Positions 3,225-43,984 of a stretch of 64,000 bases of DNA are shown one piece after another. This DNA comes from Synergistaceae bacterium (lineage in GTDB: Bacteria; Synergistota; Synergistia; Synergistales; Aminobacteriaceae), in assembly GCA_031274425.1 (NCBI GenBank), contig JAISQE010000067.1, forward strand, positions 1 to 64,000. The letters run 5' to 3'. Numbering within the stretch: position 1 is the stretch's first letter; each line of letters begins with the position of its first letter. The notes below the pieces were generated by a model. It had not been told where the DNA came from and searched no databases. It was given only the letters and a program-made list of their open reading frames with translations. Both the position numbers and the translations under genes were made by a program.

Positions 3225-3321
3225 CTTCTTTCAATAATCTTCTTTAATCTTCTTTTAAAATATAGGGACGCCGTCGGAGTCCGCAGAGTAAAATTTTAAC
3301 ACATCCTCTGGCCTCGATCGT

Positions 3322-10805: not shown

Positions 10806-11399
10806 AACCTGTGGAGAAGTGATTTCGTTATTGATTCTGGGCTCATCTTCTTCAGTTCTCGGGACTATAGCCTTTCACCTCCAGATTTTATAAAAAGCCT
10901 GAAAAGATGCTTCTCAAGCCTAAAACAACAAAAAAGGACCTACCTTTTGGCGGCCCCCGAATACAATACCATCATTTGCTTTTTTCCACGATGGAATTTT
11001 AACCAGGCAACAAAAAAACATCGCGCAGGTGAGAGGGGCTGACCTCTACTTTAACCGATTCGATTATGAAATATACCATACTTTCTTTTGACATACAACC
11101 TAATTTCTCGAATTTTTGTAGTGACTCAAACTTCGTTTTTAAAGCAAGGCCCTTGAAAAATCGATAATGGATAACAAAAACAAGCTAAAAAGAAACAGCA
11201 TGAGTTCTCTTTTTCCGATGATGGTCCGATGATCCATTCTTTCATTGCTCGTTGTGATCGCAGATCATGGCTAGTTAGGATATAATAAAAAGAAAAATCC
11301 CATTTGCGACAAAACATGCTGTTTGCACATTCATTATTCTTTTAAAAAAAATTATGGAATAGTGTTGTTTTCATCTAATCCAAAGGGAGCGGGGATGTC

Positions 11400-12227
11400 A
11401 TGGCAAAGGTAACGATTCAGAAATTGTACGAGATGAAGGGCAAGGGGGAGAAAATTTCCTACGTCACGGCCTATGATTTTGGGCAGGCGAGCTTGGTCGA
11501 AAAGGCGGAAATAGAAATGATCCTCGTCGGAGACTCTCTTTCCATGACCATGCTGGGTAACGCCTCCACCGTTCCATTGACGACCGACGAAATGATCCAT
11601 CACATCAAAGCTGTCGTCAGGGGGGCGTCCTCGCCCATGATCGTGGGCGATCTCGTCTTCGGCTCCTACAACGAGGGCCCGGAACAGGCCATCCGCAGCG
11701 CCAACCGACTGCTGAAGGAGGGCGGCTGCGACGTCGTAAAGCTCGAGGGCTGTATGCCCGAGATCGTCTCGGCTATGGTGAAAGCGGGCATCGGAGTCCA
11801 GGGGCATATCGGCCTGACCCCTCAGACCGCGGGGTTGCTCGGAGGCTTCAAACTGCAGGGCAAAAATCTGGACGCGGCGAAAAGGATCATCGATGAGGCC
11901 AAAGCCCTCGAACAGGCGGGTGCGTTTTCCCTCGTGGTGGAATGCGTCCCCGAGGAACTGGGGCGCGCGATCACCGAGGCCGTCAAAATGCCCGTCATCG
12001 GCATCGGCGCCGGGCGCTGGTGCGACGGCCAGGTGCTGGTGTACCACGATTTACTTGGTCTGTTCGACCGATTTACTCCGAAGTTCGTGAAAAAGTACGC
12101 CAACATTGGCGATCAAATCGTCAATGCCCTGAAGGACTACAAAGACGAGGTGCGTGGGGTGAAATTCCCGAGCGACGAGTACGTCTTCGGCGGCGTCACT
12201 CGGGAAGACATCGAGAAAATACGCTGA
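11400..12227 (+). CDS. panB: 3-methyl-2-oxobutanoate hydroxymethyltransferase
   Basis: KISYVTAYDF...ILVGDSLSMTMLG... PanB signature; RBS GGGAGCGGGG upstream. Confidence 0.9.
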   Translation: MAKVTIQKLYEMKGKGEKISYVTAYDFGQASLVEKAEIEMILVGDSLSMTMLGNASTVPLTTDEMIHHIKAVVRGASSPMIVGDLVFGSYNEGPEQAIRSANRLLKEGGCDVVKLEGCMPEIVSAMVKAGIGVQGHIGLTPQTAGLLGGFKLQGKNLDAAKRIIDEAKALEQAGAFSLVVECVPEELGRAITEAVKMPVIGIGAGRWCDGQVLVYHDLLGLFDRFTPKFVKKYANIGDQIVNALKDYKDEVRGVKFPSDEYVFGGVTREDIEKIR

Positions 12228-12299
12228 AGCCGCGCCTTTATGGTAGCAAGACATGAATCCGCTATGAGCGCTTTAGCGAGTATGAGCGAAAGTTTGAAG

Positions 12300-13238
12300 A
12301 TGAAGATGAAGACAGTAATACTGGGATCCGGAGCAATGGGTTGCCTTTATGGCGGAATGCTGGCGGAAGCCGGATATGATGTCGTTCTGATCGACGTATG
12401 GAAGGAACATATAGATGCCGTCAACGCTTCGGGTCTGAAAATCGAGGGGTTGAGCGGTGATCGAACCGTCCGCAATATTCGGGGCGTCACGAATCCCGCC
12501 GACGCGGGGTCGGCGGATCTGGTGATCGTTTTTGTCAAGGCCACGACGACAGAACAGGCGATGCGCGGCGCCCTCTGCCTAGTTGGAGAGGACACGACCG
12601 TACTCACGCTGCAAAACGGGCTTGGAAACGTGGAAAAGCTTTGCGACGTCGTCGACGCCTCGCGCGTTGTAGCGGGGACGACGGGGCATGGATCGACTCT
12701 CGTCGAGCCGGGACACATCCGCCATGCCGGCGCGGGGGACACCGTGGTCGGGTTCCCGAAGAGCGGGGAATCGAACGACCGCGTCGAAACGCTCGCCGCG
12801 CTCTTAAACGGGGCGAAACTGACGACCCGTGTTTCCACGAACGTCATGGGACTGATCTGGACCAAGCTGGTCGTCAACATTGGCATCAATGCTCTCACCG
12901 CTCTGACGGGCCTGAAGAACGGACGGCTCGTCGACATTCCCGAAACGATGGAACTGATGGAGATGGCTGTCGCGGAGGCCTGCGCCGTCGCGGAAGCGAA
13001 GGGCATTCGTTTCGAGGTTGACAACCCGCTGAAACACACGATGCACATCGCAAGGCTGACGGCCGCCAATCGTTCGTCGATGCTGCAGGATGTGACGGCC
13101 AAACGCCCGACCGAGGTTTCCGTGATCAACGGAGCCATTGTTGAAGAGGGCAAACGGCTCGGCATTGCCACACCGGTCAACGCCGTTCTGACCAACCTGG
13201 TGCTGACGAGGCAGAAGACATACGAAGAAATTCAATAA
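12300..13238 (+). CDS. panE: 2-dehydropantoate 2-reductase
   Basis: MKMKTVILGSGAMGCLYGGML Rossmann N-terminus plus ApbA C-terminal domain. Start placed at the internal Met; exact start uncertain (12240-12306). Confidence 0.8.
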   Translation: MKMKTVILGSGAMGCLYGGMLAEAGYDVVLIDVWKEHIDAVNASGLKIEGLSGDRTVRNIRGVTNPADAGSADLVIVFVKATTTEQAMRGALCLVGEDTTVLTLQNGLGNVEKLCDVVDASRVVAGTTGHGSTLVEPGHIRHAGAGDTVVGFPKSGESNDRVETLAALLNGAKLTTRVSTNVMGLIWTKLVVNIGINALTALTGLKNGRLVDIPETMELMEMAVAEACAVAEAKGIRFEVDNPLKHTMHIARLTAANRSSMLQDVTAKRPTEVSVINGAIVEEGKRLGIATPVNAVLTNLVLTRQKTYEEIQ

Positions 13239-13266
13239 ATCTAAAAACTCAGGAGGGATATGTACT

Positions 13267-14262
13267 ATGAAAAATTGTATTCGAAACGTTGCTCTGTTGC
13301 TTTTGATCGTTCTGCTCCACTCCGCCCCCGCCCTCGCCGCGCCCAAATTCTCCTTCAGACTGGGACACGCCGTCCCGGAGGAGAACGCATACCATTACGG
13401 CGCGACGAAGTTCGCCGAACTGGTGGAGGCAAAGACCAACGGCGAGGTCCACATCGACGTGTTCCCGAACAACCAGCTGGGCACGGGAGAGCGCGACCTC
13501 ATCGAGGGACTTCAGCTGGGGACCGTCGATATTTACGTGGGCTCTACGGGACCTATGGGAGGTTTCGAGAAACGATTTCTGCTTTTCGACTTCCCTTTTC
13601 TTTTCAGGGATAAAAAACACGTGTATTCCGTGCTGGATGGCGAGATCGGACAGCATATCCTGAGCTTGCTGGACGCAAAGGGCATGCGCGGCTTGGCGTG
13701 GATGGAGAACGGGTTCCGCAACCTCACCAATGTGAAACGAGCCGTCAATGGCGTCGAAGACGTCAAAGGACTAAAGATCCGTACAATGGAAAATAAAGTG
13801 CACATGGCGATGTGGCGCACACTAGGCGTCGACCCGACCCCTATGGCCTGGAGCGAGGTCTTCACCGCTCTGCAGCAGGGAACCATCGACGGACAGGAGA
13901 ACCCCATTCCCGTGATCTACACCTCGAAACTTTACGAGGTGCAAAAGCACCTCTCCCTGACCCGTCACGTTTTTTCCCCAGCCATGATTGTCGTGGCGAA
14001 GTCGGTTTTTGACTCCCTGCCCGAGGAGTACAGGACAATTTTCGCGGAAGCCGCGCAGGAGGCCGCGCTTTATGAGCGTGAGGTCTGCGACAAAATGGAA
14101 AACGAGTTCATCGAGTCTCTGAAGCAAAACGGCATGGAAGTTACGACTCCCGACCTCGCCTCGTTCCAGGAGGCGTGCAAGAGCGTATACGAGGAGTTCA
14201 AGGGAGAGCTCGACGAGGACGCCGGGCTGCTGGATCAGATTATCGCGATGGGTAAAGAATAA
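13267..14262 (+). CDS. TRAP transporter substrate-binding protein, DctP family
   Basis: Signal peptide; DctP-family fold motifs. Confidence 0.85.
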   Translation: MKNCIRNVALLLLIVLLHSAPALAAPKFSFRLGHAVPEENAYHYGATKFAELVEAKTNGEVHIDVFPNNQLGTGERDLIEGLQLGTVDIYVGSTGPMGGFEKRFLLFDFPFLFRDKKHVYSVLDGEIGQHILSLLDAKGMRGLAWMENGFRNLTNVKRAVNGVEDVKGLKIRTMENKVHMAMWRTLGVDPTPMAWSEVFTALQQGTIDGQENPIPVIYTSKLYEVQKHLSLTRHVFSPAMIVVAKSVFDSLPEEYRTIFAEAAQEAALYEREVCDKMENEFIESLKQNGMEVTTPDLASFQEACKSVYEEFKGELDEDAGLLDQIIAMGKE

Positions 14263-14277
14263 GGAAGGAATCGTCGC

Positions 14278-14784
14278 GTGGGAACCTGCAGGAAAACGCT
14301 GGACCACATTCAGCGGCTGACGGAATACGTCCTGTTTCTTATGGTGGCGGCGATGGTCGTCATCGTATTCGCGCAGGTGATTTTTCGTTTCGTTCTGCGT
14401 GCGTCTCTGCCCTGGTCGGAGGAGGCCGCTCGTTACATCATGGTCTGGATCTCCATGCTGGGTGCCGGCATCGGAATTCGCCGTAAGGGGCATATCGGAG
14501 TCGAGGCGGTGGTCATGCTTCTTCCCTCCGCGCTCAAAAAAGCCGTCGCCGTCCTGACGGCCCTGATCGCGTCCGGCTTTTTCCTCGGCATGGTCGTGTA
14601 CGGAGTGCAAATCTGTCGGGTCGTCGCGGCTCAGGAGTCTCCCGCTATGGAAATTTCAATGGCGATTCCTTACAGTTCCTTGGTCGCCGGAGGGCTCTTG
14701 ATGCTTTTCTATTCTCTGGAAGAGGCCCTGAACCTGACGATTGCCCCCGCGTCGTTGGAGGAGTTGGAGGAGGGCGGACGATGA
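14278..14784 (+). CDS. TRAP transporter small permease, DctQ family
   Basis: 168 aa, 4 TM; sits between dctP and dctM. Confidence 0.85.
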   Translation: MGTCRKTLDHIQRLTEYVLFLMVAAMVVIVFAQVIFRFVLRASLPWSEEAARYIMVWISMLGAGIGIRRKGHIGVEAVVMLLPSALKKAVAVLTALIASGFFLGMVVYGVQICRVVAAQESPAMEISMAIPYSSLVAGGLLMLFYSLEEALNLTIAPASLEELEEGGR

Positions 14785-16058
14785 TTACGATTCTTTTCGC
14801 CGCCCTGATCGTCTTTTTCGTCCTGAACATCCCCATAGCGATCGCCATCGGTTCGGCGACGTTTTTGGCGCTTTTCGTCAGCCCGATCCCTCCGATTGTC
14901 CTCGTTCAGAAGATGTTCACCGCCATGGATTCGTTCCCTCTGATGGCCGTGCCCTTCTTTATTCTGGCCGGGGCGCTGATGGAAAACGGCGGGATTTCTC
15001 GCCGCCTCATCCACCTGGCCAACACCTTCGTGGGGCATTTCGCCGGAGGGCTCGCTTTCGTCGCGATCATCGCCAGCATGTTCTTCGGCGCTATTTCCGG
15101 CGCGGCGGCGGCATGCGTCGCGGCCATCGGGTCCGTGATCATCCCAGAAATGGTCGCCCGCGGATATGGAAAGCCCTACACCGCAGCCGTTCAGGCAACG
15201 GCGGGAACGTTGGGCGTCATGATCCCCCCGAGCATTCCCATGATCATCTACGGGGTCATGACCGGCGTCTCGATCGGCGCACTTTTCATGGCGGGCTTTA
15301 TTCCCGGCGTTCTGGTGGGTGCGTCCCTGATGTTTGCGGCGTGGCGCATCGCGCGCAAACGCGGCTACCGGGGCGAGCGGCGCTTCACATGGAGCGAGCG
15401 CAAGGCCGCCTTCAAGGACGCGTTCTGGGCGCTCCTGATGCCCGTGATCATCCTGGGCGGCATCTACGGAGGAGTATTCACTCCGACGGAGGCTGCGGTC
15501 ATCGCGGTGGTCTACGGGCTCTTCGTCGGCTTCTTCATGTACAGGGAACTGCACTTCGCCCAGATGAAGAGCATCTTCGTCAACTGCGCGGTCAGTACGG
15601 CGATCGTCATGTTCATCATCGCGACGTCCTCCGCGTTCAGTTGGGTCATCACCTCGAAGCGCGTGCCTCAGATGGTCGCGGAGGGAATGTTGGCGTTCTC
15701 CTCGAACCCTTTCGTCATCCTCCTGATGGTCAACCTGCTGCTGCTTTTCATCGGCACCTTCATGGAAACGGTCGCCTCCATCATCATTTTGGTTCCCGTG
15801 CTGTTGCCCGTGCTGAAAAGCATCGGCGTCGATCCTCTGCACTTCGGCATCGTCATCGTGGTCAACCTTGCCATCGGCATGGTGACCCCGCCCTTGGGGG
15901 TCTGTCTTTTCGTGAGCTGCGGCATCGCCAAAATTTCGCTGGAGGACATTTCCCGCGCCGCGCTTCCCTTCATCGCGGTGATGATTCTGGACGTGTTGCT
16001 GCTGACCGCTTTCCCGGCGCTCAGCACCGTTCTTCCCAAACTGATGGGACTGTATTGA
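14781..16058 (+). CDS. TRAP transporter large permease, DctM family
   Basis: 425 aa polytopic protein; 4-nt overlap with dctQ. Confidence 0.9.
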   Translation: MITILFAALIVFFVLNIPIAIAIGSATFLALFVSPIPPIVLVQKMFTAMDSFPLMAVPFFILAGALMENGGISRRLIHLANTFVGHFAGGLAFVAIIASMFFGAISGAAAACVAAIGSVIIPEMVARGYGKPYTAAVQATAGTLGVMIPPSIPMIIYGVMTGVSIGALFMAGFIPGVLVGASLMFAAWRIARKRGYRGERRFTWSERKAAFKDAFWALLMPVIILGGIYGGVFTPTEAAVIAVVYGLFVGFFMYRELHFAQMKSIFVNCAVSTAIVMFIIATSSAFSWVITSKRVPQMVAEGMLAFSSNPFVILLMVNLLLLFIGTFMETVASIIILVPVLLPVLKSIGVDPLHFGIVIVVNLAIGMVTPPLGVCLFVSCGIAKISLEDISRAALPFIAVMILDVLLLTAFPALSTVLPKLMGLY

Positions 16059-16147
16059 TCAAGCGCCGGGGTCGCCACGCGTGGGCAATCGCCGCCTACG
16101 TTTTGAGTTTTGAGAAGTGGTTCCCGATGAATGACCACGCGTGTCGG

Positions 16148-17305
16148 TCACAAATACTTTTCAAAAGCGCTGATGAGAACGGGGATTTCATCCTCCTCTA
16201 GGCACTGCGGATTGATGACGAGTTCGGCGCCGGAAAGTCCGGTATAAATTTGCGGGTCGAGCCCCAGAAGTTCCGCATAAAGCTGCGGGGCCGTTTTACG
16301 GGTAGGTTTGACGTACACTCTCAGGATGTCGGCGGGTTGTATGCCGGGTTCCGTGGGAAATCCCTCCCGCACGGCGGCGTAAGGGATTTGAGATAGTTTT
16401 TCGCTGATCCGGCGCGTCATGGACTCCCAAATGACGACCTGCCGGTCGTAATCTTTGGCGACGAACAACTCCACCGCTTTTACGATGCCGGCGATGGTTT
16501 CCTTGTCGATTTTCATGGCGCGCCCGATGCTATAGTTGGGACAACAATTGGCGTCGCAGGCGGCGACCAGTTCCGCGTTCCCTAGGATCAAACCGGAGGA
16601 CTGAGGTCCGCGCAGTTCCTTGCCTCCGCTGAAAATCACCAGATCCGCGCCTTTTTCCAGATATTTGCGAATGTTGGATTTGGGGGGAATTTCCGCTGCG
16701 GCGTCTACAACTACGGGAACTTTGTACTTTTTCAAGATGGGGATGATGAGGCTCAAGTCGATGGAGCCGCGCATCGGCTCGGCTTCCGATGCGTAAAAGA
16801 AAAGCGCGGTCCGGTCGGAAACGGCGGCCTCCACCTGCTCGACGCAGGCAAAAGATGTCGTGCCGATTTCCTTCACTTTTATACCGGAAAGCAACAGCGC
16901 TTGATCGTATAACGTCCTGTGGCACTTGAGCACCAAGGCTTCATCCGGCATACCCGCGGTGTCGGGAAGCTGGAGTTTTTTCGCCTCGTCCCCGCGCGTC
17001 ATGCACGCGGCGGCCGCAATCGCGATGCCGGCAGCCGCGCCGCACGTTATGCAGCACGCGTCGACTCCCAGCAGTGCCGCGATGCGCTTGCCGGCGGCCT
17101 CGTGCAGCGTCGAGATTTCGACATAATGCCTCGAAGCCTCCCTCATGGCTTCGAGCACCTCCGGCGCCATCTTGGAACCGCCGACCTTCGTCACCGTACC
17201 CCACGCGTTGACCATTGTCTTCACATTCAGTTGTTCGTATATCGATTGCGTCATCGTATCGTCAGCGTCTTCTTTCTTTAAAAAATATCGATCTGAAACT
17301 TCCAT
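16148..17305 (-). CDS. SelA-like PLP-dependent enzyme (L-seryl-tRNA selenium transferase-related / DgaE-like family)
   Basis: 385 aa with SelA-related fold motifs. TAGATG junction with the upstream PIG-L gene. Confidence 0.6.
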   Translation of the reverse strand: MEVSDRYFLKKEDADDTMTQSIYEQLNVKTMVNAWGTVTKVGGSKMAPEVLEAMREASRHYVEISTLHEAAGKRIAALLGVDACCITCGAAAGIAIAAAACMTRGDEAKKLQLPDTAGMPDEALVLKCHRTLYDQALLLSGIKVKEIGTTSFACVEQVEAAVSDRTALFFYASEAEPMRGSIDLSLIIPILKKYKVPVVVDAAAEIPPKSNIRKYLEKGADLVIFSGGKELRGPQSSGLILGNAELVAACDANCCPNYSIGRAMKIDKETIAGIVKAVELFVAKDYDRQVVIWESMTRRISEKLSQIPYAAVREGFPTEPGIQPADILRVYVKPTRKTAPQLYAELLGLDPQIYTGLSGAELVINPQCLEEDEIPVLISAFEKYL

Positions 17306-18109
17306 CTAAATAATATGCCGATATTTTTCATAGTATCGCAGGTCTTCCCTTATCGGTTTCGATTCGATCAAGGCTTTCTTGATAAAATCCCGTTTATCTT
17401 TATAGAGCGGGTACCCGTTTACCGCCAGGTGCTCCTTCCACATATTATCGATGGGTGTCTGATGCATCTCGATCGCATCTATCTTTTTTTCAAGGACGTC
17501 CGAGATATCCACAATCAAATTGCTCTCCTGCGGGCCGCGCGCGCAATAATATTTTTCGGTCACAAAATGCGGAACAATCCCCATGTCTTTGAGTTCCGGC
17601 AAGTCGAGTTGCCGACCGGACATCCAGCAGGCCTGCTCTACCGCCATGGCGGTGATGTAGTGGTCAGGGTTTTCCTCGTAGTGCCCCCAAGGGTCAAATG
17701 AAATCACCGTGTCGACTTTTAAAAAACGGAACAACGCAATCAACCTGTGGCGCATTTCCGTTAAAAGAGCATGATCCAGATAATGATTCTTGTAGTTGAG
17801 ATCGTATACTTTTTGAATTCCGAAAAAATTGGCAACCGCCCGTGTTTCCTGTTCGATGCGGAATATGGTCTCCCCTGCCGTGAGGTCGTATGAATCCATT
17901 TCATCATTGGAGGTGCGGATGAAATATCCGGCGTACCCCTCGCCGATCAATTTGATGATCAACCCCCCCGCGGATAGGGAAAAATCGTCGGAATGAGGAA
18001 ATACCGCCGCACATACTTTCCCTTTGTGGGGAGAGCCCTTTTTCCAGGTCTCGATAACGATGTCGTCCATGCCGAATTTGACTCCCCTTTGCGCCTTAAA
18101 GCACGGCAT
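17306..18109 (-). CDS. PIG-L/LmbE family deacetylase
   Basis: AVFPHSDDFSLSAGG metal-binding motif typical of PIG-L N-acetyl deacetylases. Start could be the internal MDDIV. Confidence 0.75.
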   Translation of the reverse strand: MPCFKAQRGVKFGMDDIVIETWKKGSPHKGKVCAAVFPHSDDFSLSAGGLIIKLIGEGYAGYFIRTSNDEMDSYDLTAGETIFRIEQETRAVANFFGIQKVYDLNYKNHYLDHALLTEMRHRLIALFRFLKVDTVISFDPWGHYEENPDHYITAMAVEQACWMSGRQLDLPELKDMGIVPHFVTEKYYCARGPQESNLIVDISDVLEKKIDAIEMHQTPIDNMWKEHLAVNGYPLYKDKRDFIKKALIESKPIREDLRYYEKYRHII

Positions 18110-18124
18110 TGCCTGTTATCGGCG

Positions 18125-18892
18125 TCAGTTGTTGAATGTAGAGAGAAACTCCTTGAGTCTATCGGACTTCCGCTCCTCAAAAATTTCAGTGGGCGTGCCC
18201 ATCGAGGCGATTTTACCATTGTCCATAAAAACGACCTTGTCTGAAACCTCATAGGCAAAACGCATCTCATGCGTGACGATCAACATCGTCGCTCCGTCCG
18301 CGGCAAGTTGTTTGATGACGTTCAAAACCTCGCCTACAAGCTCGGGGTCGAGAGCCGACGTGGGTTCGTCGAACAAAAGAATTTTGGGGTTCATGGCGAT
18401 CGCGCGGGCAATAGCCACTCGTTGCTGTTGTCCGCCCGAGAGTTGCGACGGGCGGGAATGAGTTCTGTCCCCCAGTCCGACGCGCTCCAGCCAACGGGAT
18501 GCCTCTTTTTCCGCCTCCGCCCTAGGAAGTTTTTTTACCTTGCGCAACCCAAGGGAAACATTACCCAACGCCGTCATATGAGGAAACAGATTGAATTGTT
18601 GGAACACCATGCCCGTCAGCAAACGTTGACGAGCAATGATTCTTTCAGGAAAACGCTTTCTTTTAGAGTTTTCCTCGTGATACCCCACCGGATTTCCGTC
18701 CAAAAGAATCGAACCGGCCTGAAACGTTTCCAAAAGGTTGATGCAGCGCAGCAACGTCGTCTTGCCGGAACCGCTGGCGCCGATGATGGACACGACCTCT
18801 CCGGCGTTGACGTCCAAATCCACACCCTCGAAGACCTTCAGGGACCCAAACCATTTCCCCAGTCTTCTGATTCGCAGCAAGCTATCTTCCAT
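18125..18892 (-). CDS. amino-acid ABC transporter ATP-binding protein (polar amino acid type)
   Basis: Walker [28 protein letters not shown] signature, Walker [12 protein letters not shown]. Confidence 0.9.
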
Positions 18893-18897
18893 TAAAA

Positions 18898-19575
18898 TTA
18901 CCCCCCGTCAAAACGAAGTCGTTTCTCGGCCGCTTTGCCCGTAAATTCGATAACGGTGTTCAGCAGAAAATAGATCAGACCGATGAAACAATAATATTTT
19001 AAGGCATGGTTGTTGGTCGCGATCAGTTGTTGCGTTACCAAAAGCAGATCCGAAATGCCGATCAGCATCAATAACGTAGTCCCCTTGACCGTTTCGGTCG
19101 CGCTGTTCACCCAAGGCGGAAGCATTTGGATCAACGCCTGCGGCAGAAGAATGTAGTACAAAATTTGTCCGAAACGAAAACCGATCGCTTTACCGGCCTC
19201 GATTTGTCCTCTAGGAATGGCCTGTAGAGCCCCACGCGTCAATTCGGCCATTTGCGCGGTGTTCGTGACGGAAAGAGCGATAATTCCAGCCATCAGCGCC
19301 GGCAGTTTGACGCCATAAGATCGAAGGAAAACGTCCAGAAAATAATAAATGGTGAAAACGACGACCAACCCAGGAATTCCACGAACCACGTCTACGAAAA
19401 GACGAAAAGGAAACACGACGTACTTACGCGCGAACGTCATGATAAAGCCCATGACGATGCCGCAGAATGAACCGATCGCGATCGCGCAGACAGCCGCGAA
19501 CATCGAATGAAAAATTCCGATAAAAACAGCCATCCTCGCCGCCAGCAAACTTTCCCAAAAACCCACGGGGCTCAT
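18898..19575 (-). CDS. amino-acid ABC transporter permease
   Basis: His/Gln-type permease with EAA-like motif. Confidence 0.85.
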
Positions 19576-19601
19576 GTTTTTTCCTCCGAGTCAGGGGGGC
19601 G

Positions 19602-20261
19602 TCATTGGATTGCGAACCTGCGCTCGATACGCCTCAAAATAAAGGCCATCAGATAGCAGGCGATCACGTAGAGAGCGGCGGTTATCAACCATACTTCGAA
19701 CACCCGAAACGTGAGAGTGTTGATTTTTTTTGCGTTATAGGTCAGCTCTGGGATGGTGATGGACGCGGCAAGCGAGGTATCTTTGAAAAGAGATATCAGA
19801 TAATTGCCCAACGAGGGCAGAACGTTCTTAAACATGATCGGAAGCTGGATGTTCCAGAAAATCTGCAAAGGAGTCAACCCTATAGCCTGACCGGCTTCGA
19901 GAATTCCCGTCGGAATCGCCTCTAACCCCGCGCGGAAAACCTCGGTCATATACGCGCCGGCGTAAAGCGACAGGGCAAAAATAAACGACTCGCTCTTACC
20001 CAGTCGAATATGGAGGTCCGGCAGACCGAAATACGCTATAAAAATCAGCACCAGCAGAGGCGTATTGCGCAAAAGCGTCACATAGAACCGCGCAATCCCT
20101 CTGAGGAGGGGGTGCTTGGAAATCGCCGCAAGCGCCATGAACAATCCCAACGCCATGCCGATCATCAGTGAAGCCAGCGCCAGCAAAAAACCCAGGAGGA
20201 GCCCGTCGAGCAATAAATTTATCTGAGCGAACACGATATTGAAATTCCAAAAATATCTCAA
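19602..20261 (-). CDS. amino-acid ABC transporter permease
   Basis: Second permease of the same family. Confidence 0.85.
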   Translation of the reverse strand: MRYFWNFNIVFAQINLLLDGLLLGFLLALASLMIGMALGLFMALAAISKHPLLRGIARFYVTLLRNTPLLVLIFIAYFGLPDLHIRLGKSESFIFALSLYAGAYMTEVFRAGLEAIPTGILEAGQAIGLTPLQIFWNIQLPIMFKNVLPSLGNYLISLFKDTSLAASITIPELTYNAKKINTLTFRVFEVWLITAALYVIACYLMAFILRRIERRFAIQ

Positions 20262-20298
20262 TCGTTCTACCTCCTGGATGAAACTCTAAACGACGGGC

Positions 20299-21168
20299 TC
20301 AACGATACATGAGTGGTTTTCCGATAGGGGGCGTGGGGAGTTTTTCCCCAAACCATTTTTCGTAAGCGGTATTGTAGAGCTCGTAGGTCGAACCCGCCAT
20401 GCAATCGATAAACACGGTGTTCACGTAATTCAGCCATTCCTGCTCGTCGGGTCTCACTCCGCCGCCGTAAAGTTGTGGGTTGAACCCAAAACCGGAATCG
20501 ACATAGAGTTCCGGCTGTTTGCTGGCCAACCATTTAATCGAAGAAAGATCTACCGCGCCGGCATCCGCGCGGCCAGACGTGACCGCCTGATAAACCAGGC
20601 CCTGGTTTTCGTACTGATCGTCCTTGCTGCCCGGAACCATTCTCTGCACGTTATTGGCGGCGTCCGCGTTTTGCAGTATCGCGATGGTCACCGTCTTACC
20701 CGCCTGCACCGCCGCCACGAGGTCGTCGTATTTTTTATATTGGCTTTTAGGCGATAGAATGAGTCCGATGCCTTCCGTATAATAGGGAACGGTGAACGCA
20801 ATTTGCTGGGCTCGGGCCGGAGTGATCGTCATGAACTGAAGACAGATATCGACTTTATCCGCGAGCAAATTGGGAATACGCTGATCGGGCGCTTGCTCTA
20901 CGAACTCGACCTTCGTCTCGTCGCCAAACAACCCGCGTGCCAAAATTTTACCCATCTCAATGTCCATGCCTTCATATTCGCCGTTGTTATTTTTGAGATG
21001 CCAGGGAACGTTAGTGCTGCCCGTGCCCACGACCAACTTGCCCCGAGCAAGAATTTCCTGTAGTTTCCCGGCCGCCTCGGCGTTTCCGACCATACAAGCG
21101 AAAATGAGCGCCAAACAAAAAAAACCAACACACGACAGTTTTGCGAACTTTTTCATTACCCTCTCCAT
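20299..21168 (-). CDS. amino-acid ABC transporter substrate-binding protein
   Basis: Signal peptide plus type-3 SBP family; first gene of the minus-strand operon. Confidence 0.85.
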   Translation of the reverse strand: MERVMKKFAKLSCVGFFCLALIFACMVGNAEAAGKLQEILARGKLVVGTGSTNVPWHLKNNNGEYEGMDIEMGKILARGLFGDETKVEFVEQAPDQRIPNLLADKVDICLQFMTITPARAQQIAFTVPYYTEGIGLILSPKSQYKKYDDLVAAVQAGKTVTIAILQNADAANNVQRMVPGSKDDQYENQGLVYQAVTSGRADAGAVDLSSIKWLASKQPELYVDSGFGFNPQLYGGGVRPDEQEWLNYVNTVFIDCMAGSTYELYNTAYEKWFGEKLPTPPIGKPLMYR

Positions 21169-21318
21169 CTCCTTTTTTTAAAATAACCGATGAGCTTTTA
21201 TTATATTACCCCGATGTCTAAATAGGTCAAGTAGCATAAGCGATTGCCGGGTGCTCAAAGAAGTCGTCCAATGCTGGTCAAACTTCTTTAGAAATGGGTA
21301 AGATCCAGACGGGCTTCT

Positions 21319-22296
21319 TTAATAGCCCACGGCGTCGCGATCGGCAAGGCTGCCTCGGGCAATTTTGCGAGAGTTTCCTAAAAGCTGCCACAGCGCGACT
21401 TCAAAGCCGATCCAACCCTCGGCGAGCGAGGTTTTTTCGAGGTAGGAAAGGCGTATCAGGCTCAACATGAAGTGTTTGACGTTTTCTCGTCCAAAATGAT
21501 CGAGGGCGTTGCGCGCCATGCGCAGCGCGTATTCGCGTGTGGCTCCGATAGCCGAGAGGGCCTGCCCTTCCGTTTGGGGCGAGGAGCAAGCGATGTAAAG
21601 CGCTGGGCGCAGTCGGTTGTAGAGAGCGGTTAAAAGCGGAAGAGGGGATGGGTCCGATTCGAGGTATTTCAGAGCGTTCAGCACGTCTTTGTGGCGGGCC
21701 TGACAGACGCCGTCCAAAAAACGTAAAAGGGCGTTGCCCCCCTCGTCGAACGAAAGCTGCTTGACGGTCTCGACGGCGATGAGTTCCCCGGCTTTATAAA
21801 ACGCCAATTTGTCCAGTTCCGCGCGCAATTCCTCCAGCGACTCCAGCGACTCCGCCAAAAGCGCGGCGGCCGCTCCGTCCAGTCGGCAGGATTTTTCTCT
21901 CGCGAGGTTGATGAGCCACTCCCGACGCTTCCAGGGAGGAACGGAGGCGTCGGAGCGGATAAAAGCGATTTTTTGCAGAATTTCCTTCGCGAAGATCTTC
22001 TTCGTGTCCCCGTTGAAGACGGCGACGATAACGTCGTCCGCGTCGTCTTCCAGAAGGTCTACGAGGGAAAGCGGGAAGGCTCCGAGTTGCTCGGCGCCCT
22101 CTAGGATCGTCATTCTCTTATCGTCGAAAAGGCCCCCGCTGCGGGAGGCCGCGATCACCCCCGGCCAGCCGCCCGGCACGGACGCGGCCTCGAATTTGCC
22201 GGTCAAGGCGTATCCTTTCTTCGTGAGGTCCGACAGCGATTCTTCCAGTTTTCGACGCTGACTCTCGTGTCCCTCGATGGCGATCAGCTTCGGCAT
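21319..22296 (-). CDS. holA: DNA polymerase III delta subunit
   Basis: 325 aa HolA-like; lies immediately downstream of leuS (conserved leuS-holA linkage). Confidence 0.75.
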   Translation of the reverse strand: MPKLIAIEGHESQRRKLEESLSDLTKKGYALTGKFEAASVPGGWPGVIAASRSGGLFDDKRMTILEGAEQLGAFPLSLVDLLEDDADDVIVAVFNGDTKKIFAKEILQKIAFIRSDASVPPWKRREWLINLAREKSCRLDGAAAALLAESLESLEELRAELDKLAFYKAGELIAVETVKQLSFDEGGNALLRFLDGVCQARHKDVLNALKYLESDPSPLPLLTALYNRLRPALYIACSSPQTEGQALSAIGATREYALRMARNALDHFGRENVKHFMLSLIRLSYLEKTSLAEGWIGFEVALWQLLGNSRKIARGSLADRDAVGY

Positions 22297-22303
22297 TCGG
22301 GTT

Positions 22304-24880
22304 TTAAAGATCCTTGACGACGATGTTGACGAGCTTGTCGGGTACGGCGATGATTTTGACGATCTCCTTAGGGATGCCCTGGGGCGCGATCTTCTCCTTG
22401 ACCTGCGCGTCGCTCATCACGATGTCCTTCAACTGCGTTTCATCGAGTCCCGCCGGCATGGAGAGTTTGACGCGCACCTTGCCGTTCACCTGCACGACGA
22501 TGGTGACGACGTCCGCGACGAGCGCGTCCTCCTCCGAAACGGGCCAGGGCGTCTTGGCGAGCAAGGTTTTGTTGCCCAACATCCGCCAGAGTTCCTCGGC
22601 GATATGCGGGCTGAAGGGAGACAGGCAGTTCAAAAGGACGTCCACCGCTTCGCGCCGCAGCTTGTATCCGACGGGCTCGGCGGGCTGAAACGCATAAAGC
22701 GCGTTCGTCAGTTCCATCAAACGGGCGATGGCGGTGTTGAACTGCTTCTCCTCGTTGATGTCGCGCGTCACGGAGAAAATCGTGTTGTGGATCTTGCGCT
22801 TGAAATCGCGCTGAACCGGGTCGGACAGGGCGGACATGGGGACGCGGGCAGGATCGGACTCGGAGTAAACGTCCCCCGAGCTAGGCTCATGGGTCAGTCC
22901 CTCCAGGTTGTCCTCCACGAAGCGCCACACCCGGTTCAGAAAACGATGCGCGCCCTCCACGCCTTGTTCCGACCAGTCCAAGTCGTTCTGGGGCGGAGAG
23001 GCGAAAAGGATGAAAAGACGCACGGTGTCGGCACCGTATTTGTCGACGATCTCCGTCGGGTCCACCACGTTGCCCAGAGACTTCGACATCTTGGCGCCCT
23101 CTTTGATGACCATTCCCTGGGTCAAAAGATTGGTGAACGGCTCGCGCACGTTGCAGGGCAAGAGGCCGGCATCCGACAGGAACATCGTGAAGAAGCGCGC
23201 GTAGATCAAGTGGAGGCAGGCGTGTTCGATTCCCCCGATGTATTGGTCGACGGGCATCCAGTAATCCGTGTCCTTCGCGTTGAACGGCGCTTTGTCGAAT
23301 CCAGGCGAGCAGTAGCGGTCGAAATACCAGGACGAGCAGAAGAACGTGTCCATAGTCTCGGCCTCCCGCCGCGCCTTTCCCCCACAGACCGGACACGCGG
23401 TTTCGAGCCACTCCGGCAGGTCCAGAAGCGGAGAACGTCCCACGTCGACGACTTGAACGTCCTCGGGCAGCAACACGGGAAGCTGGTCCTCGGGTACGGG
23501 AACCAGGCCGCACTTCGGGCAGTGCACGAAGGGAATGGGCGTTCCCCAATAACGCTGGCGCGAGATCAGCCAGTCGCGCAAACGGAAGTTCACCTCGCGC
23601 TTGCAGAGCCCTTCTTTCTCGCCCCAGTCGATCATCGCCTGTATGGCCTTTTGCGTCGGCAGTCCGTTGAATTGCGCGGAGTTGCAGCTCAGCCCGTCGT
23701 CCTCGAACGCGGCCTCCATCGTCGCGCCGTCCAGCGTTTCCCCCTCCGGCTGAATGACCGGAATGATCGGGATGCCGTACTTGCGGCAGAAGTCGAAGTC
23801 GCGCTGGTCGTGCGCCGGAACGCCCATGATCGCGCCCGTGCCGTAGTCCATGAGAATGTAATTGGCGATCCAGATGGGGACGGGCTCGCCCGTGACGGGG
23901 TGCGCGCCGGTGAAGGGCGTCTTGAGGCCCAGCTTCTCTCCCCCCGCGTCGGAGCGTTCGATGGCGCTCTGGGCCGCGCATCGGGCCACGAAATCGGACA
24001 TTTGTTTCGCCTCGGAGGAACCGCCGTCCCCCGAGCCCTTTTTTTCGGCTTTTTCGGACAATTTGTCGATCATGGCCTTGATCAGCTCGTGCTCCGGGGC
24101 CAGGGCAATGAAGGTGATGCCGTATACCGTGTCGAAGCGGGTGGTGAAGGCTTCGATCGTGTAGTCCAGTTCCTCGACTCTGAAGGAGAGCCGCGCGCCC
24201 TCCGAGCGGCCGAGCCAATTGCGCTGCATGATGCGGACGCGCTCGGGCCAACCGGTGAGCTGCGTGTCGATGTTGTCCAGAAGCTCCTGCGCGTAGTCCG
24301 TGATCTTAATGAACCACTGTTCCAGGTTTTTCTTGACGACGGGCGTCTCGCAGCGCCAGCACGCGCCATTTACGACCTGTTCGTTGGCGAGCACGGTCCC
24401 GCAGGGCTCGCACCAGTTGACGGGAGCTTGTTTGCGGTACACCAGTCCCTTTTTGTACATTTGAAGAAAAATCCACTGGTTCCAGCGATAGTAGTCCGGG
24501 TTGCAGCTCTCGACGCGCCGCCTCCAGTCGTAGCTGTAACCCATGCGCTTGAGCTGATTCGTCATGTATTCGATGTTGTTCCAGGTCCACTCGTGGGGTT
24601 TGGTCTTGTATTTGATCGCGGCGTTCTCCGCCGGCATGCCGAAGGCGTCGAAGCCCATCGGGTAGAGAACGTTGAATCCCTTCTTGCGGAGGAAACGGGC
24701 AAGCATGTCTCCCATGGAGTAATTGCGCACGTGCCCCATGTGCAGCGCGCCGCTAGGGTAGGGAAACATCTCCAGGCAATAGAACTTGGGCTTGCCCGGA
24801 TCGGTCTCCACCTCGAAACTTTTTTGATTTTCCCATATCTTTTGCCACTTTGTCTCGATTGCCTGAAAATCGTAGCCCAT
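22304..24880 (-). CDS. leuS: leucine--tRNA ligase
   Basis: 858 aa; HMGH and KMSKS class I motifs plus CP1 editing domain. Confidence 0.97.
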
Positions 24881-25131
24881 CGTACATTTCCCCCCGAAAT
24901 TTTAAGAAAAAGGCTTGAGGCCGGAATCGCTGAAAACCCCTACGAACATCGCCCGGCAATTCAATATCAGAAAGGATTATAGCGTTTAACCCTCTCCGTG
25001 GCAAAGGCGGCGGGCATACGCTCCGCGCGGCGGGGAAAGCCGCGTTCCAAACCGGTATTATTATCGGTAAAGGCTTGCGTCGCCGCCTCCGAAAGTCGAG
25101 TATAATGAAAAATTATACGCGATAAGGGGGT

Positions 25132-26499
25132 ATGACTGTGCCGAACATAGACGCGAACGCTGGGGGAAGCACGGAAAAAATTCAGGGAAAAAATCAAGAT
25201 TTGAAAGAGCGCGCGTGGAAGGCGATCGACGAACGCGCGGAGGATCTCGGGCGCTTTGTTCGGGACATCGGAAAAAACGCCGAGGTCGGTTTCTTTGAAA
25301 CGCGGACCTCGGAGAAGGTCGCGGATTTTTTGCGGAGCCTGAGGTTGCCCGTCGAGAACGGATTTGCGTTGACGGGCGTCGAGGGGCTGTTCGACACGGG
25401 GAAACCGGGCCCGAAGGTGGCGGTGTTGGGGGAGTTGGACTCCGTGGTCTGTTTCGACGCGCCCGACGCGAACCCGGAGACGGGGGCGGCGCACCAGTGC
25501 GGGCACCATGTGCAGCTCGGGGTCATGCTGGCGACGGCGGTGGGGCTGACGGGTTCCGGAGCGGCGTCCGAACTTGCCGGCAAGGTGGTTTTTATGGGGG
25601 TCCCCGCGGAGGAATACATCCAAATCGAGCGACGCCTGAAACTCAAAGATGAGGGTAAAATCCACTTTATCGGCGGCAAAGCGGAGCTGATTCGCCTTGG
25701 GCGATTCGATGACGTGGACATGACGATGATGATCCACGCCTCCTCTAATCGTCCGAGGGCCAGTGTGGACCGAGGGCGGACGAGCAACGGCTTCGTCGGG
25801 CTCACGATTCGCTACATCGGGCGTCAAGCCCATGCCGCGGGCAGCCCGGACCAGGGGATCAACGCCCTCTCCGCCGCCGTTCTGGGCATTTCCGCAGTGA
25901 ACGCTTTGCGCGAAACGTTCCGCGACGAGGATCATGTACGGGTTCACTTCATCATCACCAAGGGCGGGGACCTGGTGAACTGCGTGCCCGACGACGTGCG
26001 GCTCGAAGCCTACGTCCGCGCCAGTTCCGTACCCGTGATCGAGGAGACCCTGACCCGAGTCGCCCGCGCGTTCAAAGCGGGAGGCGACGCCGTCGGGGCG
26101 AAGACGGAATGCAAGGTGTTGCCGGGCATGTTTCCCCTTGCCGGCTGCCCCGACCTGTACGAATTGTTCTATGAAAATTCCGAGCCCTTCGTCGCCCCGG
26201 AGGACTTCTTCGACGGCGGGCACATGGCGGGTTCCACGGACATGGGGGACATCAGTCAGATCATGCCGGCCTGTCATCCCATGACGGGCGGGATGGACGG
26301 GGTGCTCCACGGGGCGGACGCGCGGGTCGTGGACTACGGCGCGGCGGTGATCGCTCCCGGAAAGGCGATGGCCGCCACCGTGATCGACCTCTTGTTCAAC
26401 GACGCGGAGAAGGCCCGGCGCATCCTGTCCTCGTTCAAACCCAACCTGACGAAAGAAGTCTACCTCAAAAAACTGAACGATTATTTCGAGTACAAGTAG
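25132..26499 (+). CDS. M20 family amidohydrolase / peptidase
   Basis: AHQCGHH metal-binding motif and M20D-like fold; RBS AAGGGGG. Confidence 0.7.
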   Translation: MTVPNIDANAGGSTEKIQGKNQDLKERAWKAIDERAEDLGRFVRDIGKNAEVGFFETRTSEKVADFLRSLRLPVENGFALTGVEGLFDTGKPGPKVAVLGELDSVVCFDAPDANPETGAAHQCGHHVQLGVMLATAVGLTGSGAASELAGKVVFMGVPAEEYIQIERRLKLKDEGKIHFIGGKAELIRLGRFDDVDMTMMIHASSNRPRASVDRGRTSNGFVGLTIRYIGRQAHAAGSPDQGINALSAAVLGISAVNALRETFRDEDHVRVHFIITKGGDLVNCVPDDVRLEAYVRASSVPVIEETLTRVARAFKAGGDAVGAKTECKVLPGMFPLAGCPDLYELFYENSEPFVAPEDFFDGGHMAGSTDMGDISQIMPACHPMTGGMDGVLHGADARVVDYGAAVIAPGKAMAATVIDLLFNDAEKARRILSSFKPNLTKEVYLKKLNDYFEYK

Positions 26500-26523: not shown

Positions 26524-27138
26524 ATGGAGGAAATGAACATGCGCAGATTTTTGATTTTAACGGTCCTTGTTTCGATTTTTGCGTCGGGGACCGCGTTTGC
26601 GGAATACGACGTCAGTGGTTTGTGGCTGCTGGAGGGCAGCGGGTACGCCGAAAAAAGCCCCGTGCGGTCCGAGCTGACGGACACCGGGACGCTCGACATC
26701 AAAACCGAGACAAAGGACGGGGTCCAGTATATTGTGGGCTATTCCCTGGAACTGCGGCTCGACGCGTCGCGGTTCAACATCAACGCGTGGAAGGACTCCA
26801 AGATCGTGCTTCTGGACATCCCCGTCGTGGTTCCGGAGTTGAACCCCACGACGAACCGCCCCTTCGAGCTGCCCCCCGTCACCATCGACGGCTTGACCTA
26901 CGAGGTGACGTTCACCACCACGACGTCAGGAACCGTGAAGATTTACGGCTACATCGACGTGGACGTGGTGGGCAGCGTCGAGATCAACTCCATAAGCGTC
27001 ATTTGGAAAAGCGGAACCTCCAAACCGGATGTCCCCCAAATGACCAGCGGCTGCGATTCGGGTATGTCCTGGGTCTTGTTGGCGTTGGTTCTAGGGAGCG
27101 GGAGGGTTTGCCGACGCTTCCGGCGAGGCGGACTCTAA
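26524..27138 (+). CDS. small secreted protein with a C-terminal sorting-signal-like tail (SGC-DSG + TM helix + Arg-rich end)
   Basis: N-terminal signal peptide (MRRFLILTVLVSIFASGTAFA). C-terminus ...TSGCDSGMSWVLLALVLGSGRVCRRFRRGGL, tripartite like PEP-CTERM/GlyGly-CTERM-type signals. Confidence 0.6.
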   Translation: MEEMNMRRFLILTVLVSIFASGTAFAEYDVSGLWLLEGSGYAEKSPVRSELTDTGTLDIKTETKDGVQYIVGYSLELRLDASRFNINAWKDSKIVLLDIPVVVPELNPTTNRPFELPPVTIDGLTYEVTFTTTTSGTVKIYGYIDVDVVGSVEINSISVIWKSGTSKPDVPQMTSGCDSGMSWVLLALVLGSGRVCRRFRRGGL

Positions 27139-29338: not shown

Positions 29339-29654
29339 CTCGATCCCCCTGAGTGGAATATCCAACATTCAGTGCTTACGTTCCTCCGCAAACTCCGAAA
29401 CTTGTTTTAAGTATAACACTTTCGTACGTTTGACCCAAAGGAAGAGCGAGACCCCAAAACCGTAAGGGAAAATATTGAAACGGAAGTTCGCCATTTGAAT
29501 CTTCGAAAAATCACCGTCCCCCCGGTCGCGCCGGGGTTCTTTCGCCGTTTCCCCCAAAGACGCGTCGCGTGAGACGTTTTATGTTGTTTCATGCGACGTT
29601 TCACGCGGCTTTCAGAGAAAATTTTAAGAGCAAAAGGCGGGCAGGGAATATTCA

Positions 29655-39937: not shown

Positions 39938-39982
39938 TTCCAATTTAAAGCTGACAAAGCCGATGAAGAAGGTGCGAACGCG

Positions 39983-41484: not shown

Positions 41485-41495
41485 GGGGATTCTGT

Positions 41496-43930: not shown

Positions 43931-43933
43931 ATA

Positions 43934-43972
43934 GACTTATTGATAGAGAGACTTATTATTGATTATTGATAT
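43934..43972. promoter_or_regulatory. TTATTGAT direct-repeat cluster immediately upstream of the TetR gene (candidate operator)
   Basis: GACTTATTGATAGAGAGACTTATTATTGATTATTGATATC; three TTATTGAT copies within 40 bp, ending 12 bp before the tetR ATG. Confidence 0.4.
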
Positions 43973-43984
43973 CGAGGGACCAGG

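Follow-up and report, generated by a model that had tools for sequence, protein, structure and literature searches.

A recurrent bacterial cassette of an amino-acid-type importer, a PIG-L deacetylase and a SelA-like enzyme may degrade amino-sugar acids

What does a bacterium take up and break down with an operon in which the genes of a polar-amino-acid ATP-binding cassette (ABC) importer run directly into those of a PIG-L deacetylase and a relative of selenocysteine synthase? The question is raised by a 64,000-nucleotide stretch of a Synergistaceae contig (JAISQE010000067.1; the whole stretch is called the window here, and all coordinates are window positions), in which six co-directional genes occupy positions 16148–21168 of the minus strand. 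An original prediction, made from the sequence of the window, had proposed that this cassette imports an N-acetylated amino compound, deacetylates it and then processes it by elimination or deamination that depends on pyridoxal phosphate (PLP). On balance, we favour the reading that the cassette breaks down a hexosaminate, with or without an N-acyl group, to a 2-keto-3-deoxy acid. The substrate would be an amino-sugar acid that resembles an alpha-amino acid, most likely 2-acetamido-2-deoxy-D-gluconate (N-acetyl-D-glucosaminate, GlcNAc1A), D-glucosaminate or a C2 or C4 epimer of these; we propose GlcNAc1A as the specific substrate with lower confidence than the general mechanism. Our literature searches (on DgaE and glucosaminate, on GlcNAc1A with PIG-L or LmbE, on 8T7J, and on YheO and DauR) found no paper describing the bacterial cassette, in agreement with the earlier remark that its pathway matches none that has been characterised.

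Six genes form a tightly spaced cassette

The described layout was borne out: six open reading frames (ORFs) are present, and each protein matches the Pfam model of its presumed family above the gathering cut-off. The first gene encodes a family-3 solute-binding protein of the periplasmic or lipoprotein type (20299–21168; SBP_bac_3, 90.1 bits against a cut-off of 26.4). It is followed by ABC permease 1 (19602–20261; BPD_transp_1, 77.4 bits; TIGR01726 HEQRo_perm_3TM, 90.6 bits), ABC permease 2 (18898–19575; BPD_transp_1, 69.5 bits; TIGR01726, 59 bits; the TIGR01726 cut-off is 42.2) and an ABC ATPase (18125–18892; ABC_tran, 126.6 bits; the best NCBIfam models, EhuA, GlnQ and TcyN, all score below their cut-offs). 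The last two genes encode a predicted metal-dependent N-deacetylase of the PIG-L/LmbE family (CAZy CE14; 17306–18109; Pfam PIG-L, PF02585, 58.4 bits against a gathering cut-off of 28.2) and a fold-type-I PLP enzyme of the SelA superfamily (16148–17305; Pfam SelA, 51.8 bits against 22.8). For three of the six ORFs, inner starts were chosen from the lengths of homologues and from ribosome-binding sites. The likely starts are 21156 for the binding protein (MKKF..., with GGAGAGG upstream), 18070 for the PIG-L protein (254 aa, with AAAGGGGAG upstream; homologues have 252–262 aa) and 17254 for the SelA-like protein (368 aa; homologues have 366–368 aa). With these starts, the successive intergenic gaps measure 37, 26, 5, 54 and 51 nt.

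The PLP enzyme falls in a clade beside DgaE and Cap15

The last gene product had been placed in the family of DgaE, the ammonia-lyase acting on D-glucosaminate-6-phosphate. We found that its proximity to DgaE holds, whereas membership of DgaE itself does not. The enzyme scored 200.1 bits with the NCBIfam DgaE-family subfamily model TIGR01437 (cut-off 385.3), 193.3 bits with the DgaE equivalog NF047797 (cut-off 600) and 69.4 bits with the SelA equivalog TIGR00474 (cut-off 267.9), reaching none of the three. Its sequence matches in the PDB were DgaE, the closest characterised relative (7lc0, E 2e-46), 8t7j (E 7e-42) and SelA (E about 1e-11). An AlphaFold model built with 26 homologues had a mean pLDDT of 91.8, and a Foldseek search with this model returned Cap15 of capuramycin biosynthesis (8t7j) as the best structural match over the full length (TM score 0.88–0.91, 31–32% identity), followed by DgaE (7lc0; 0.87), with SelA at about 0.70.

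The fold and the PLP lysine are shared with DgaE. This lysine is K212 (counted from M18; window 16621–16619), and the lysine of the FSGGK motif aligns with that of the DgaE motif SGAK in all members of the family. In a phmmer alignment covering DgaE residues 1–283, each of the 12 aligned members has Ala (a single one has Asn) at the position of His162 and Glu at that of His163, beside the motif SEA-EPMRGS, and the equivalent of Arg226 varies across the family. In DgaE itself, the His162–His163 pair is reported to be strictly conserved, His163 is assigned as the C3 proton donor, Arg226 is the proposed carboxylate binder and a cluster of Arg301, Arg332 and Arg346 is proposed to bind the 6-phosphate (PMC9529869). 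Because the scores fall under the cut-offs and the His162–His163 pair is replaced, we conclude that the enzyme is an orthologue of neither SelA nor DgaE, and the profile-based and structure-based classification that had been suggested as a check gave the same answer from both sides. Orthology with DgaE was rejected at the equivalog level on the two missed cut-offs and the Ala/Glu replacement.

The enzyme and its relatives form a distinct and tightly conserved clade, sister to DgaE and Cap15, whose members are 55–83% identical across phyla and share the invariant, clade-specific signatures FFYxSEAEPMRGS, AAAE(I/L)PPK and CDANCCPNYSIGR. Databases name them 'L-seryl-tRNA(Ser) selenium transferase', 'selenocysteine synthase' or 'aminotransferase class V-fold', names that the cut-offs tested do not support. 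The substrates of both DgaE and Cap15 are presumably beta-hydroxy-alpha-amino acids borne on a sugar-like chain, and by analogy we predict that the cassette enzyme is an ammonia-lyase that catalyses an alpha,beta-elimination.

The deacetylase retains the metal site of its family

The HSDD motif noted earlier in the PIG-L protein is present as PHSDD at residues 38–42 of the long ORF (window 17998–17984). The complete HxDD + H metal motif is intact, consisting of H39, D41, D42 and H150 in the same numbering, with the third metal ligand in the sequence NPDH (window 17671–17660), and H39-S-D41-D42 and H150 are retained in 16 of 16 aligned orthologues. This motif defines the metal-binding and general-base site of LmbE-like zinc hydrolases, and all characterised enzymes of the LmbE family act on substrates derived from GlcNAc (PMC4101496). 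The closest solved structures are the archaeal diacetylchitobiose deacetylases (Dac; 3WL4, 8BGN and 3WE7; E 1e-21 to 2e-18), which share the HxDD + H site. Unlike Dac, in which the corresponding motif is HPDH, all cassette orthologues have Asn in place of the first His (NPDH or NPEH), and their partners are an amino-acid-type importer and a PLP lyase rather than chitinolytic genes. The only NCBIfam models matched were those for the bacillithiol deacetylases BshB1 (TIGR04001, 55.6 bits against a cut-off of 182.5) and BshB2 (TIGR04000, 40.3 against 195.25), neither of which was reached; one orthologue nevertheless carries the database name 'bacillithiol biosynthesis deacetylase BshB1', for which these cut-offs give no support. 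The typed neighbours of the cassette include no bacillithiol or mycothiol gene, with no dedicated search for bshA or bshC being run. The conserved site suggests that the PIG-L protein removes an N-acetyl group.

The importer has the anchors expected for an amino-acid head group

The four transport genes have the architecture of the polar-amino-acid transporter (PAAT) family, with a family-3 binding protein, two permeases bearing TIGR01726 and one ATPase, and we assign the system as a probable importer at the level of the family. The binding protein has a hydrophobic N-terminal leader and is closest, among solved structures, to arginine-binding proteins and to the ancestral protein AncCDT-1 (E 2e-30). 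All substrate-specific NCBIfam equivalogs for the binding protein, the permeases and the ATPase scored far under their cut-offs (ArtJ, for instance, gave 64.5 bits against 510, and a cystine model 71 against 312), and the binding protein fitted none of the known PAAT substrate classes tested (His, Arg, Gln, cystine, Glu/Asp and ectoine). When aligned with an E. coli glutamine-binding protein (GlnBP) sequence, its R119 probably corresponds to Arg75, the carboxylate anchor, and its D207 to Asp157, the ammonium anchor. Both residues are kept in all orthologues, in cassettes with and without PIG-L alike. Anchors of this kind would suit a ligand whose alpha-amino-acid head group is free.

The cassette recurs across phyla

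To compare genomic contexts, as the original prediction had suggested, we combined 23 loci from a scan of one genome per species with 80 more from a metagenome scan and with contexts from single-protein look-ups, and assigned cassette membership by tblastn with the six window proteins. Grouping at 90% identity of the PLP enzyme, among relatives at least 50% identical on loci of at least 7 kb, gave 30 non-redundant groups, in which neighbours were counted within 8 kb of the PLP gene. All six genes occurred in the same order in 11 of these groups from different phyla, so that their juxtaposition is not a matter of chance. Complete cassettes in this order were found in Synergistales (L006, the closest relative, with 78–90% identity), Synergistaceae (L012, L013 and L032), Aminobacteriaceae (L015), Candidatus Limiplasma (L008), other metagenome-assembled genomes of Bacillota and Clostridiales (L009–L011 and L026), Candidatus Lumbricidophila (L027, L035 and L036) and metagenome contigs without an assigned taxon (L029, L034 and L037).

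PIG-L was present in 16 of the 30 groups, together with the ABC system in 11; two groups had the ABC system without PIG-L. Elsewhere, an EF_0837-like amidohydrolase/deacetylase (7/30) or a DDAH-like hydrolase (2/30) replaces or joins PIG-L, such that 22 of the 30 groups have at least one of these candidate N-deprotecting hydrolases. RidA-like proteins (PF14588) occurred in 14 groups and YheO-type PAS_6/HTH_22 regulators in 11; genes of the phosphotransferase system (PTS) were not seen among the neighbours typed in relatives. The association also held in the reverse direction: with PIG-L as the query, four of four additional contexts contained the SelA-like gene and three of the four the same ABC system. 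The PIG-L and SelA-like clades are thus neighbours from either query. In Paenibacillus and Cohnella, the pair stands beside sugar-type ABC transporters, which indicates that the two enzymes are the conserved core and that the transporter is exchangeable. Cohnella silvisoli NL03-T5 and Paenibacillus koleovorans NBRC 103111 are cultured strains that carry the pair. In relatives from termite guts, the SelA-like gene lies alone beside sugar-sensor two-component genes, a setting that offers no functional clue.

A second module directly follows the cassette in Synergistaceae and Aminobacteriaceae (L012, 11229–13662; L013, 11362–13784; L015, 11218–13649; and L032). It contains a 33%-identical paralogue of the SelA-like gene, an EF_0837-like amidohydrolase/deacetylase gene, two large ORFs, and Opp-type permease and ATPase genes, and repeats the logic of deacylase plus lyase with another deacylase and another transporter. 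The window lacks this module.

Neighbouring genes point to 2-keto-3-deoxy acids

Several lineages link the SelA-like gene to genes for the metabolism of 2-keto-3-deoxygluconate (KDG). In gut Clostridia (L002–L004, L014, L040, L043 and L049), genes for a DDAH-like protein, the SelA-like enzyme, a PfkB-family kinase (KdgK), the aldolase Eda and an aminotransferase stand behind a sigma-54 activator gene; upstream lie another DDAH-like gene and an ABC system of the Opp type. In Oscillospiraceae of the human gut, more than 30 contigs (including loci L021, L025, L066–L093, L102 and L110) carry a version without PIG-L that comprises a YheO regulator, Eda, KdgK, a class I/II aminotransferase, RidA, the ABC system, the SelA-like enzyme and an alanine/serine racemase. 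On a third type of contig (L034), genes for an IclR regulator, Eda, KdgK, a 232-aa ORF and RidA precede the full six-gene cassette, PIG-L included, on one strand. The best models for the linked kinase are those of KDG and 2-keto-3-deoxygalactonate (KDGal) kinases, and the aldolase linked to it scores above the cut-offs for Eda (267.7 against 241 bits). Sugar-acid dehydratases are also found nearby: a DgoD-like gene occurs in two Synergistaceae (L012 and L013), an ILVD_EDD-family gene in one context and an MR_MLE-family gene in L030. In Synergistaceae relatives, DgoD-like and Eda genes are found immediately upstream. Three independent architectures with KdgK and Eda, together with these dehydratases, argue for the conversion of a 2-amino-2-deoxy-aldonate to a 2-keto-3-deoxy-aldonate.

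Two further observations concern particular lineages. In Spirochaetes and Sphaerochaetaceae (L023, L024 and L106), the SelA-like and RidA genes are accompanied by those of the carboxylate transporter TctABC, a sulfatase whose C-terminal domain is of the N-sulphoglucosamine-sulphohydrolase type, a regulator of the YheO type, a GHL6-like protein and an EF_0837-like amidohydrolase, which hints at a sulfated amino-sugar acid as the substrate. For the DDAH/arginine-deiminase-fold (guanidino-modifying) hydrolase of the gut Clostridia, we offer no explanation.

A proposed route to KDG and its objections

In the route that we favour, the family-3 binding protein and the ABC system of two permeases and one ATPase would import the compound, and the PIG-L zinc hydrolase would take off the N-acetyl group, releasing acetate. 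The SelA-like enzyme would then bind the free 2-amino group as an external aldimine and eliminate the 3-hydroxyl, giving the enamine or imine of a 2-keto-3-deoxy-hexonate, which would hydrolyse to KDG (or KDGal) and ammonia; this step is proposed on the basis of the closest characterised relative, DgaE, and of the gene neighbours. In relatives, a RidA-like protein would quench the enamine or imine, and KDG kinase and 2-keto-3-deoxy-6-phosphogluconate (KDPG) aldolase would yield pyruvate and glyceraldehyde-3-phosphate. Import by an ABC system rather than a PTS suggests a substrate that is presumably not phosphorylated, and the amino-acid type of the transporter points to uptake of the acid itself.

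Several points weigh against this route. The main caution comes from the binding protein, whose anchors would suit D-glucosaminate better than the N-acetylated form; since these free-amine anchors are kept, an acetyl group on the alpha-amine cannot be assumed. The outline of uptake, deacetylation and PLP-dependent elimination in the original prediction survives, through the coupling of PIG-L with the SelA-like enzyme and the KdgK and Eda neighbours, with the acetyl group placed on the alpha-amine or elsewhere. The hosts, judging by record titles, are presumably mostly gut and digester anaerobes, which fits poorly with a substrate whose source depends on oxygen. GlcNAc1A is a product of oxygen-dependent lytic polysaccharide monooxygenases (PMC9537276, PMC12017989), and the known substrates of PIG-L enzymes are pyranose forms of GlcNAc rather than an open-chain aldonate (PMC4101496). 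KdgK or Eda is found in a minority of groups, 6 of 30 (KdgK in 4 and Eda-type aldolases in 6). A tblastn search of the whole window for RidA, a YheO regulator, Eda and KdgK found none, so the genes for these steps would lie in other parts of the genome or be lacking; the same search for an EF_0837 amidohydrolase, D-transaminase, aminotransferase, DDAH and sigma-54 activator matched the SelA-like gene only. The recurrent class I/II aminotransferases, a D-amino-acid-transaminase-like protein and the alanine/serine racemase are likewise not explained by the simple scheme.

Counterparts among characterised systems

The nearest functional parallel is the Ong pathway of Pseudoalteromonas prydzensis, for which it was proven experimentally that OngB deacetylates GlcNAc1A and OngC deaminates the product to KDG, with RidA (OngD) and KdgK as essential partners (PMC9537276). 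The predicted activities of the cassette follow the same sequence, with dedicated import, an N-deacetylase yielding glucosaminate and acetate, and a PLP deaminase yielding KDG and ammonia. RidA-family and KDG-kinase partners are present in some of the cassette relatives (14 and 4 of the 30 groups), both being absent from the 64-kb window. The proteins differ at every step. The cassette has an ABC system with a family-3 binding protein in place of the sodium-solute symporter OngIT, a PIG-L/CE14 protein in place of OngB, which has a D-aminoacylase fold (PMC12017989), a fold-type-I SelA-like enzyme in place of OngC, a fold-type-III PLP enzyme (PMC9537276), and a YheO-type regulator or none in place of the RpiR-type OngR. 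The cassette is hosted by Synergistota, Bacillota and others, the Ong pathway by marine Gammaproteobacteria. By this comparison, the cassette would be a non-homologous functional counterpart of the Ong pathway.

DgaE is PTS-linked in Salmonella. Like DgaE, the cassette enzyme probably catalyses an alpha,beta-elimination on a 2-amino-2-deoxy-aldonate, and in cassette relatives it too has a KDPG aldolase as downstream partner. Unlike the DgaE operon, which combines a mannose-family PTS with the KDPG aldolase DgaF, the window encodes an ABC importer but lacks an aldolase gene, and the relatives add a separate KDG kinase. The pairing of PIG-L with a DgaE-like enzyme was discussed, among the literature searched, only for natronoarchaeal chitin degraders, in which a route from GlcNAc through glucosaminate was predicted in a 2025 genome paper, without experiments, from a CE14 deacetylase, a glucose dehydrogenase and a DgaE homologue (PMC12343721). 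Both settings combine a CE14 deacetylase with a homologue or relative of DgaE, and in the archaeal route the product would be KDG or KDPG; the natronoarchaeal clusters also contain a galactonate dehydratase and a RutC/RidA-family protein, and DgoD-like and RidA-like genes lie near the cassette in relatives. In the archaeal route, GlcNAc or chitobiose would first be deacetylated and then oxidised, whereas no dehydrogenase was found in the cassette.

Alternative substrates and roles

The alternative that survives best, although we consider it unlikely, is that the substrate is an amino acid with an N-acetylhexosamine on its side chain (O-GlcNAc- or O-GalNAc-Ser/Thr, or GlcNAc-Asn) set free when glycoproteins are degraded. 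In this reading, the free amino-acid head group would be gripped by the binding protein and the sugar deacetylated by PIG-L; beta-elimination of the glycosyl group from serine, by the SelA-like enzyme, would then leave pyruvate, ammonia and the hexosamine. This would account for the retained free alpha-amino-acid anchors and for the fact that every characterised LmbE enzyme acts on an aglycone-linked GlcNAc ring, and RidA-like partners would suit a 2-aminoacrylate product. Yet no hexosamine-catabolic gene was found among the typed neighbours, KDG kinase and KDPG aldolase being linked instead; the same anchors are kept by cassettes that lack PIG-L; and there is no chemical reason for deacetylation to precede the elimination.

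We rank just below this, and again as unlikely, a salvage of D-amino acids or N-acetyl-D-amino acids (such as N-acetyl-D-Ser or N-acetyl-D-Thr), in which PIG-L would be the analogue of a D-aminoacylase and the SelA-like enzyme a D-Ser/D-Thr dehydratase. Several neighbouring genes fit chemistry of D-amino acids, coding for a D-amino-acid-transaminase-like protein, a racemase of alanine/serine, RidA-like proteins and regulators of the YheO type, and the transporter is of the amino-acid type; OngC, the analogous deaminase of the Ong pathway, also deaminates D-Ser and D-Thr (PMC9537276). What speaks against it is that pyruvate and 2-oxobutyrate need no KDG kinase or KDPG aldolase, yet both are in the operon of several lineages, and that sugar-acid dehydratases, sugar-type ABC systems, a GHL6-like protein and a sulfatase turn up in other contexts. 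Simple N-acetyl amino acids are not known as substrates of any PIG-L enzyme (PMC4101496).

A biosynthetic role, in the making of a bacillithiol- or mycothiol-type thiol or in the Cap15-like tailoring of a nucleoside natural product, appears very improbable. It would draw on the BshB1 and BshB2 models, the only NCBIfam matches of PIG-L, and on Cap15 as the closest structural match of the PLP enzyme. The BshB1 score is far below its cut-off, and the 30 contexts contained no typed glycosyltransferase, cysteine ligase or other biosynthetic gene; in every case the partner is an importer, and genes for catabolism recur. Cap15 belongs to a biosynthetic antibiotic cluster and its chemistry uses O2, according to the title of its PDB entry, whereas the window gene lies in an uptake operon and many hosts belong to apparently anaerobic lineages. 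We see next to no chance that the PLP enzyme is a genuine selenocysteine synthase, despite its Pfam SelA match and the name 'L-seryl-tRNA selenium transferase' given to homologues in several databases: beyond the missed TIGR00474 cut-off and the lower TM score than to Cap15 or DgaE, it has 368 aa against 452–463 in solved SelA chains, its match to Aquifex SelA begins at about residue 67, leaving the SelA N-terminal domain without a counterpart, and the gene always stands inside transport and catabolic operons, so that we rejected it as SelA. The two settings that the original prediction had itself named as contrary to it, a genuine SelA and a thiol context for PIG-L, thus found no support in the profile scores, the structure comparison or the typed neighbours.

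Flanks and other genes of the window

The genes upstream of the cassette are leuS (1035 bits) and holA (96 bits, with the cut-off at 80); a gap of 162 nt separates holA from the binding-protein gene. This gap contains TTGACC, 16 nt and TAATAT on the minus strand (21203–21230; 9/12 matches), which we list as a candidate promoter only, because promoter-like sites in 15900–21500 were no more frequent than in shuffled sequence (6 against 4.3 ± 2.0). Terminator-like sites in the same interval numbered 13 against 7.6 ± 3.3 in shuffled sequence, which we took as not above it, and no convincing minus-strand terminator was found there beyond 16148; a hairpin at 16079–16101 reads as the plus-strand terminator of dctM. 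An Rfam scan of 11000–26000 with E values up to 0.1 found no riboswitch or other RNA family. Downstream and convergent are genes for a DctPQM tripartite ATP-independent periplasmic (TRAP) transporter, a PanE/ApbA-like reductase and panB.

The cassette region has a G+C content of 0.51–0.53, compared with 0.55–0.64 in most of the window, and the flanks of the closest relative (L006) are wholly unlike those of the window, with genes for a PglD-like acetyltransferase and a short-chain dehydrogenase/reductase upstream and for GrpE downstream. Taken together, the differing flanks and the lower G+C suggest that the cassette moves as one unit.

Long ORFs at 22277–24982 (+), 14741–16201 (+) and 14709–15842 (−), which run opposite to or out of frame with leuS and dctM, were rejected as shadow ORFs. 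Their translations are rich in arginine and histidine, and third-position G+C is low in the first two (0.57 and 0.46). Similarly, an ORF at 2997–4259 (+) of L012, opposite a real gene, was treated as the shadow of a GC-rich gene.

Beyond leuS, the window encodes an M20-dimer-domain amidohydrolase/peptidase (25132–26499, +), a LamB/YcsF family protein (27091–27900, −) and a 486-aa protein with only a weak match to DUF4315 (27908–29368, −); we found no link between these genes and the cassette. A further run of genes on one strand (38552–44617, +) comprises a PGI-like gene (38552–39937), an ORF at 40135–41484, a gene for a YhfX-like fold-type-III PLP protein (41496–42653; PF21279 and Ala_racemase_N), a phosphopentomutase-like metalloenzyme gene (42650–43930) and a TetR regulator gene. 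We take this run to resemble the uncharacterised yhfS-X cluster of E. coli.

Discussion

The cassette is widely distributed and consistently misannotated. It is possible, if rather doubtful, that it opens a so far unrecognised nutrient niche of anaerobes in guts and digesters; the nutrient would be a glycosylated amino acid, or else an amino-sugar acid, outside the reach of known pathways. As parts of the same doubtful proposal, the compound could be 2-aminogluconate from oxidised chitin or bacterial envelopes, or O-hexosaminyl-serine; the PLP reaction could be that of a non-phosphorylated hexosaminate ammonia-lyase or a glycosyl-serine beta-lyase, activities unassigned to genes in these phyla; and the accessory racemase, D-transaminase and aminotransferase could hide a branch of epimerisation or transamination.

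If the conversion of an amino-sugar acid to a 2-keto-3-deoxy acid is correct, transport, N-deacetylation and deamination to KDG were reinvented with unrelated protein families, in a package that passes between phyla. It would also give a function to two clades: the large one for which databases use the label 'L-seryl-tRNA selenium transferase' or else 'aminotransferase class V', and one of CE14 proteins that are sometimes mislabelled BshB1. Finally, it would raise the question of where the substrate comes from, as anaerobes may feed on compounds of the glucosaminate type whose one documented source in the literature searched is the oxygen-dependent oxidation of chitin.

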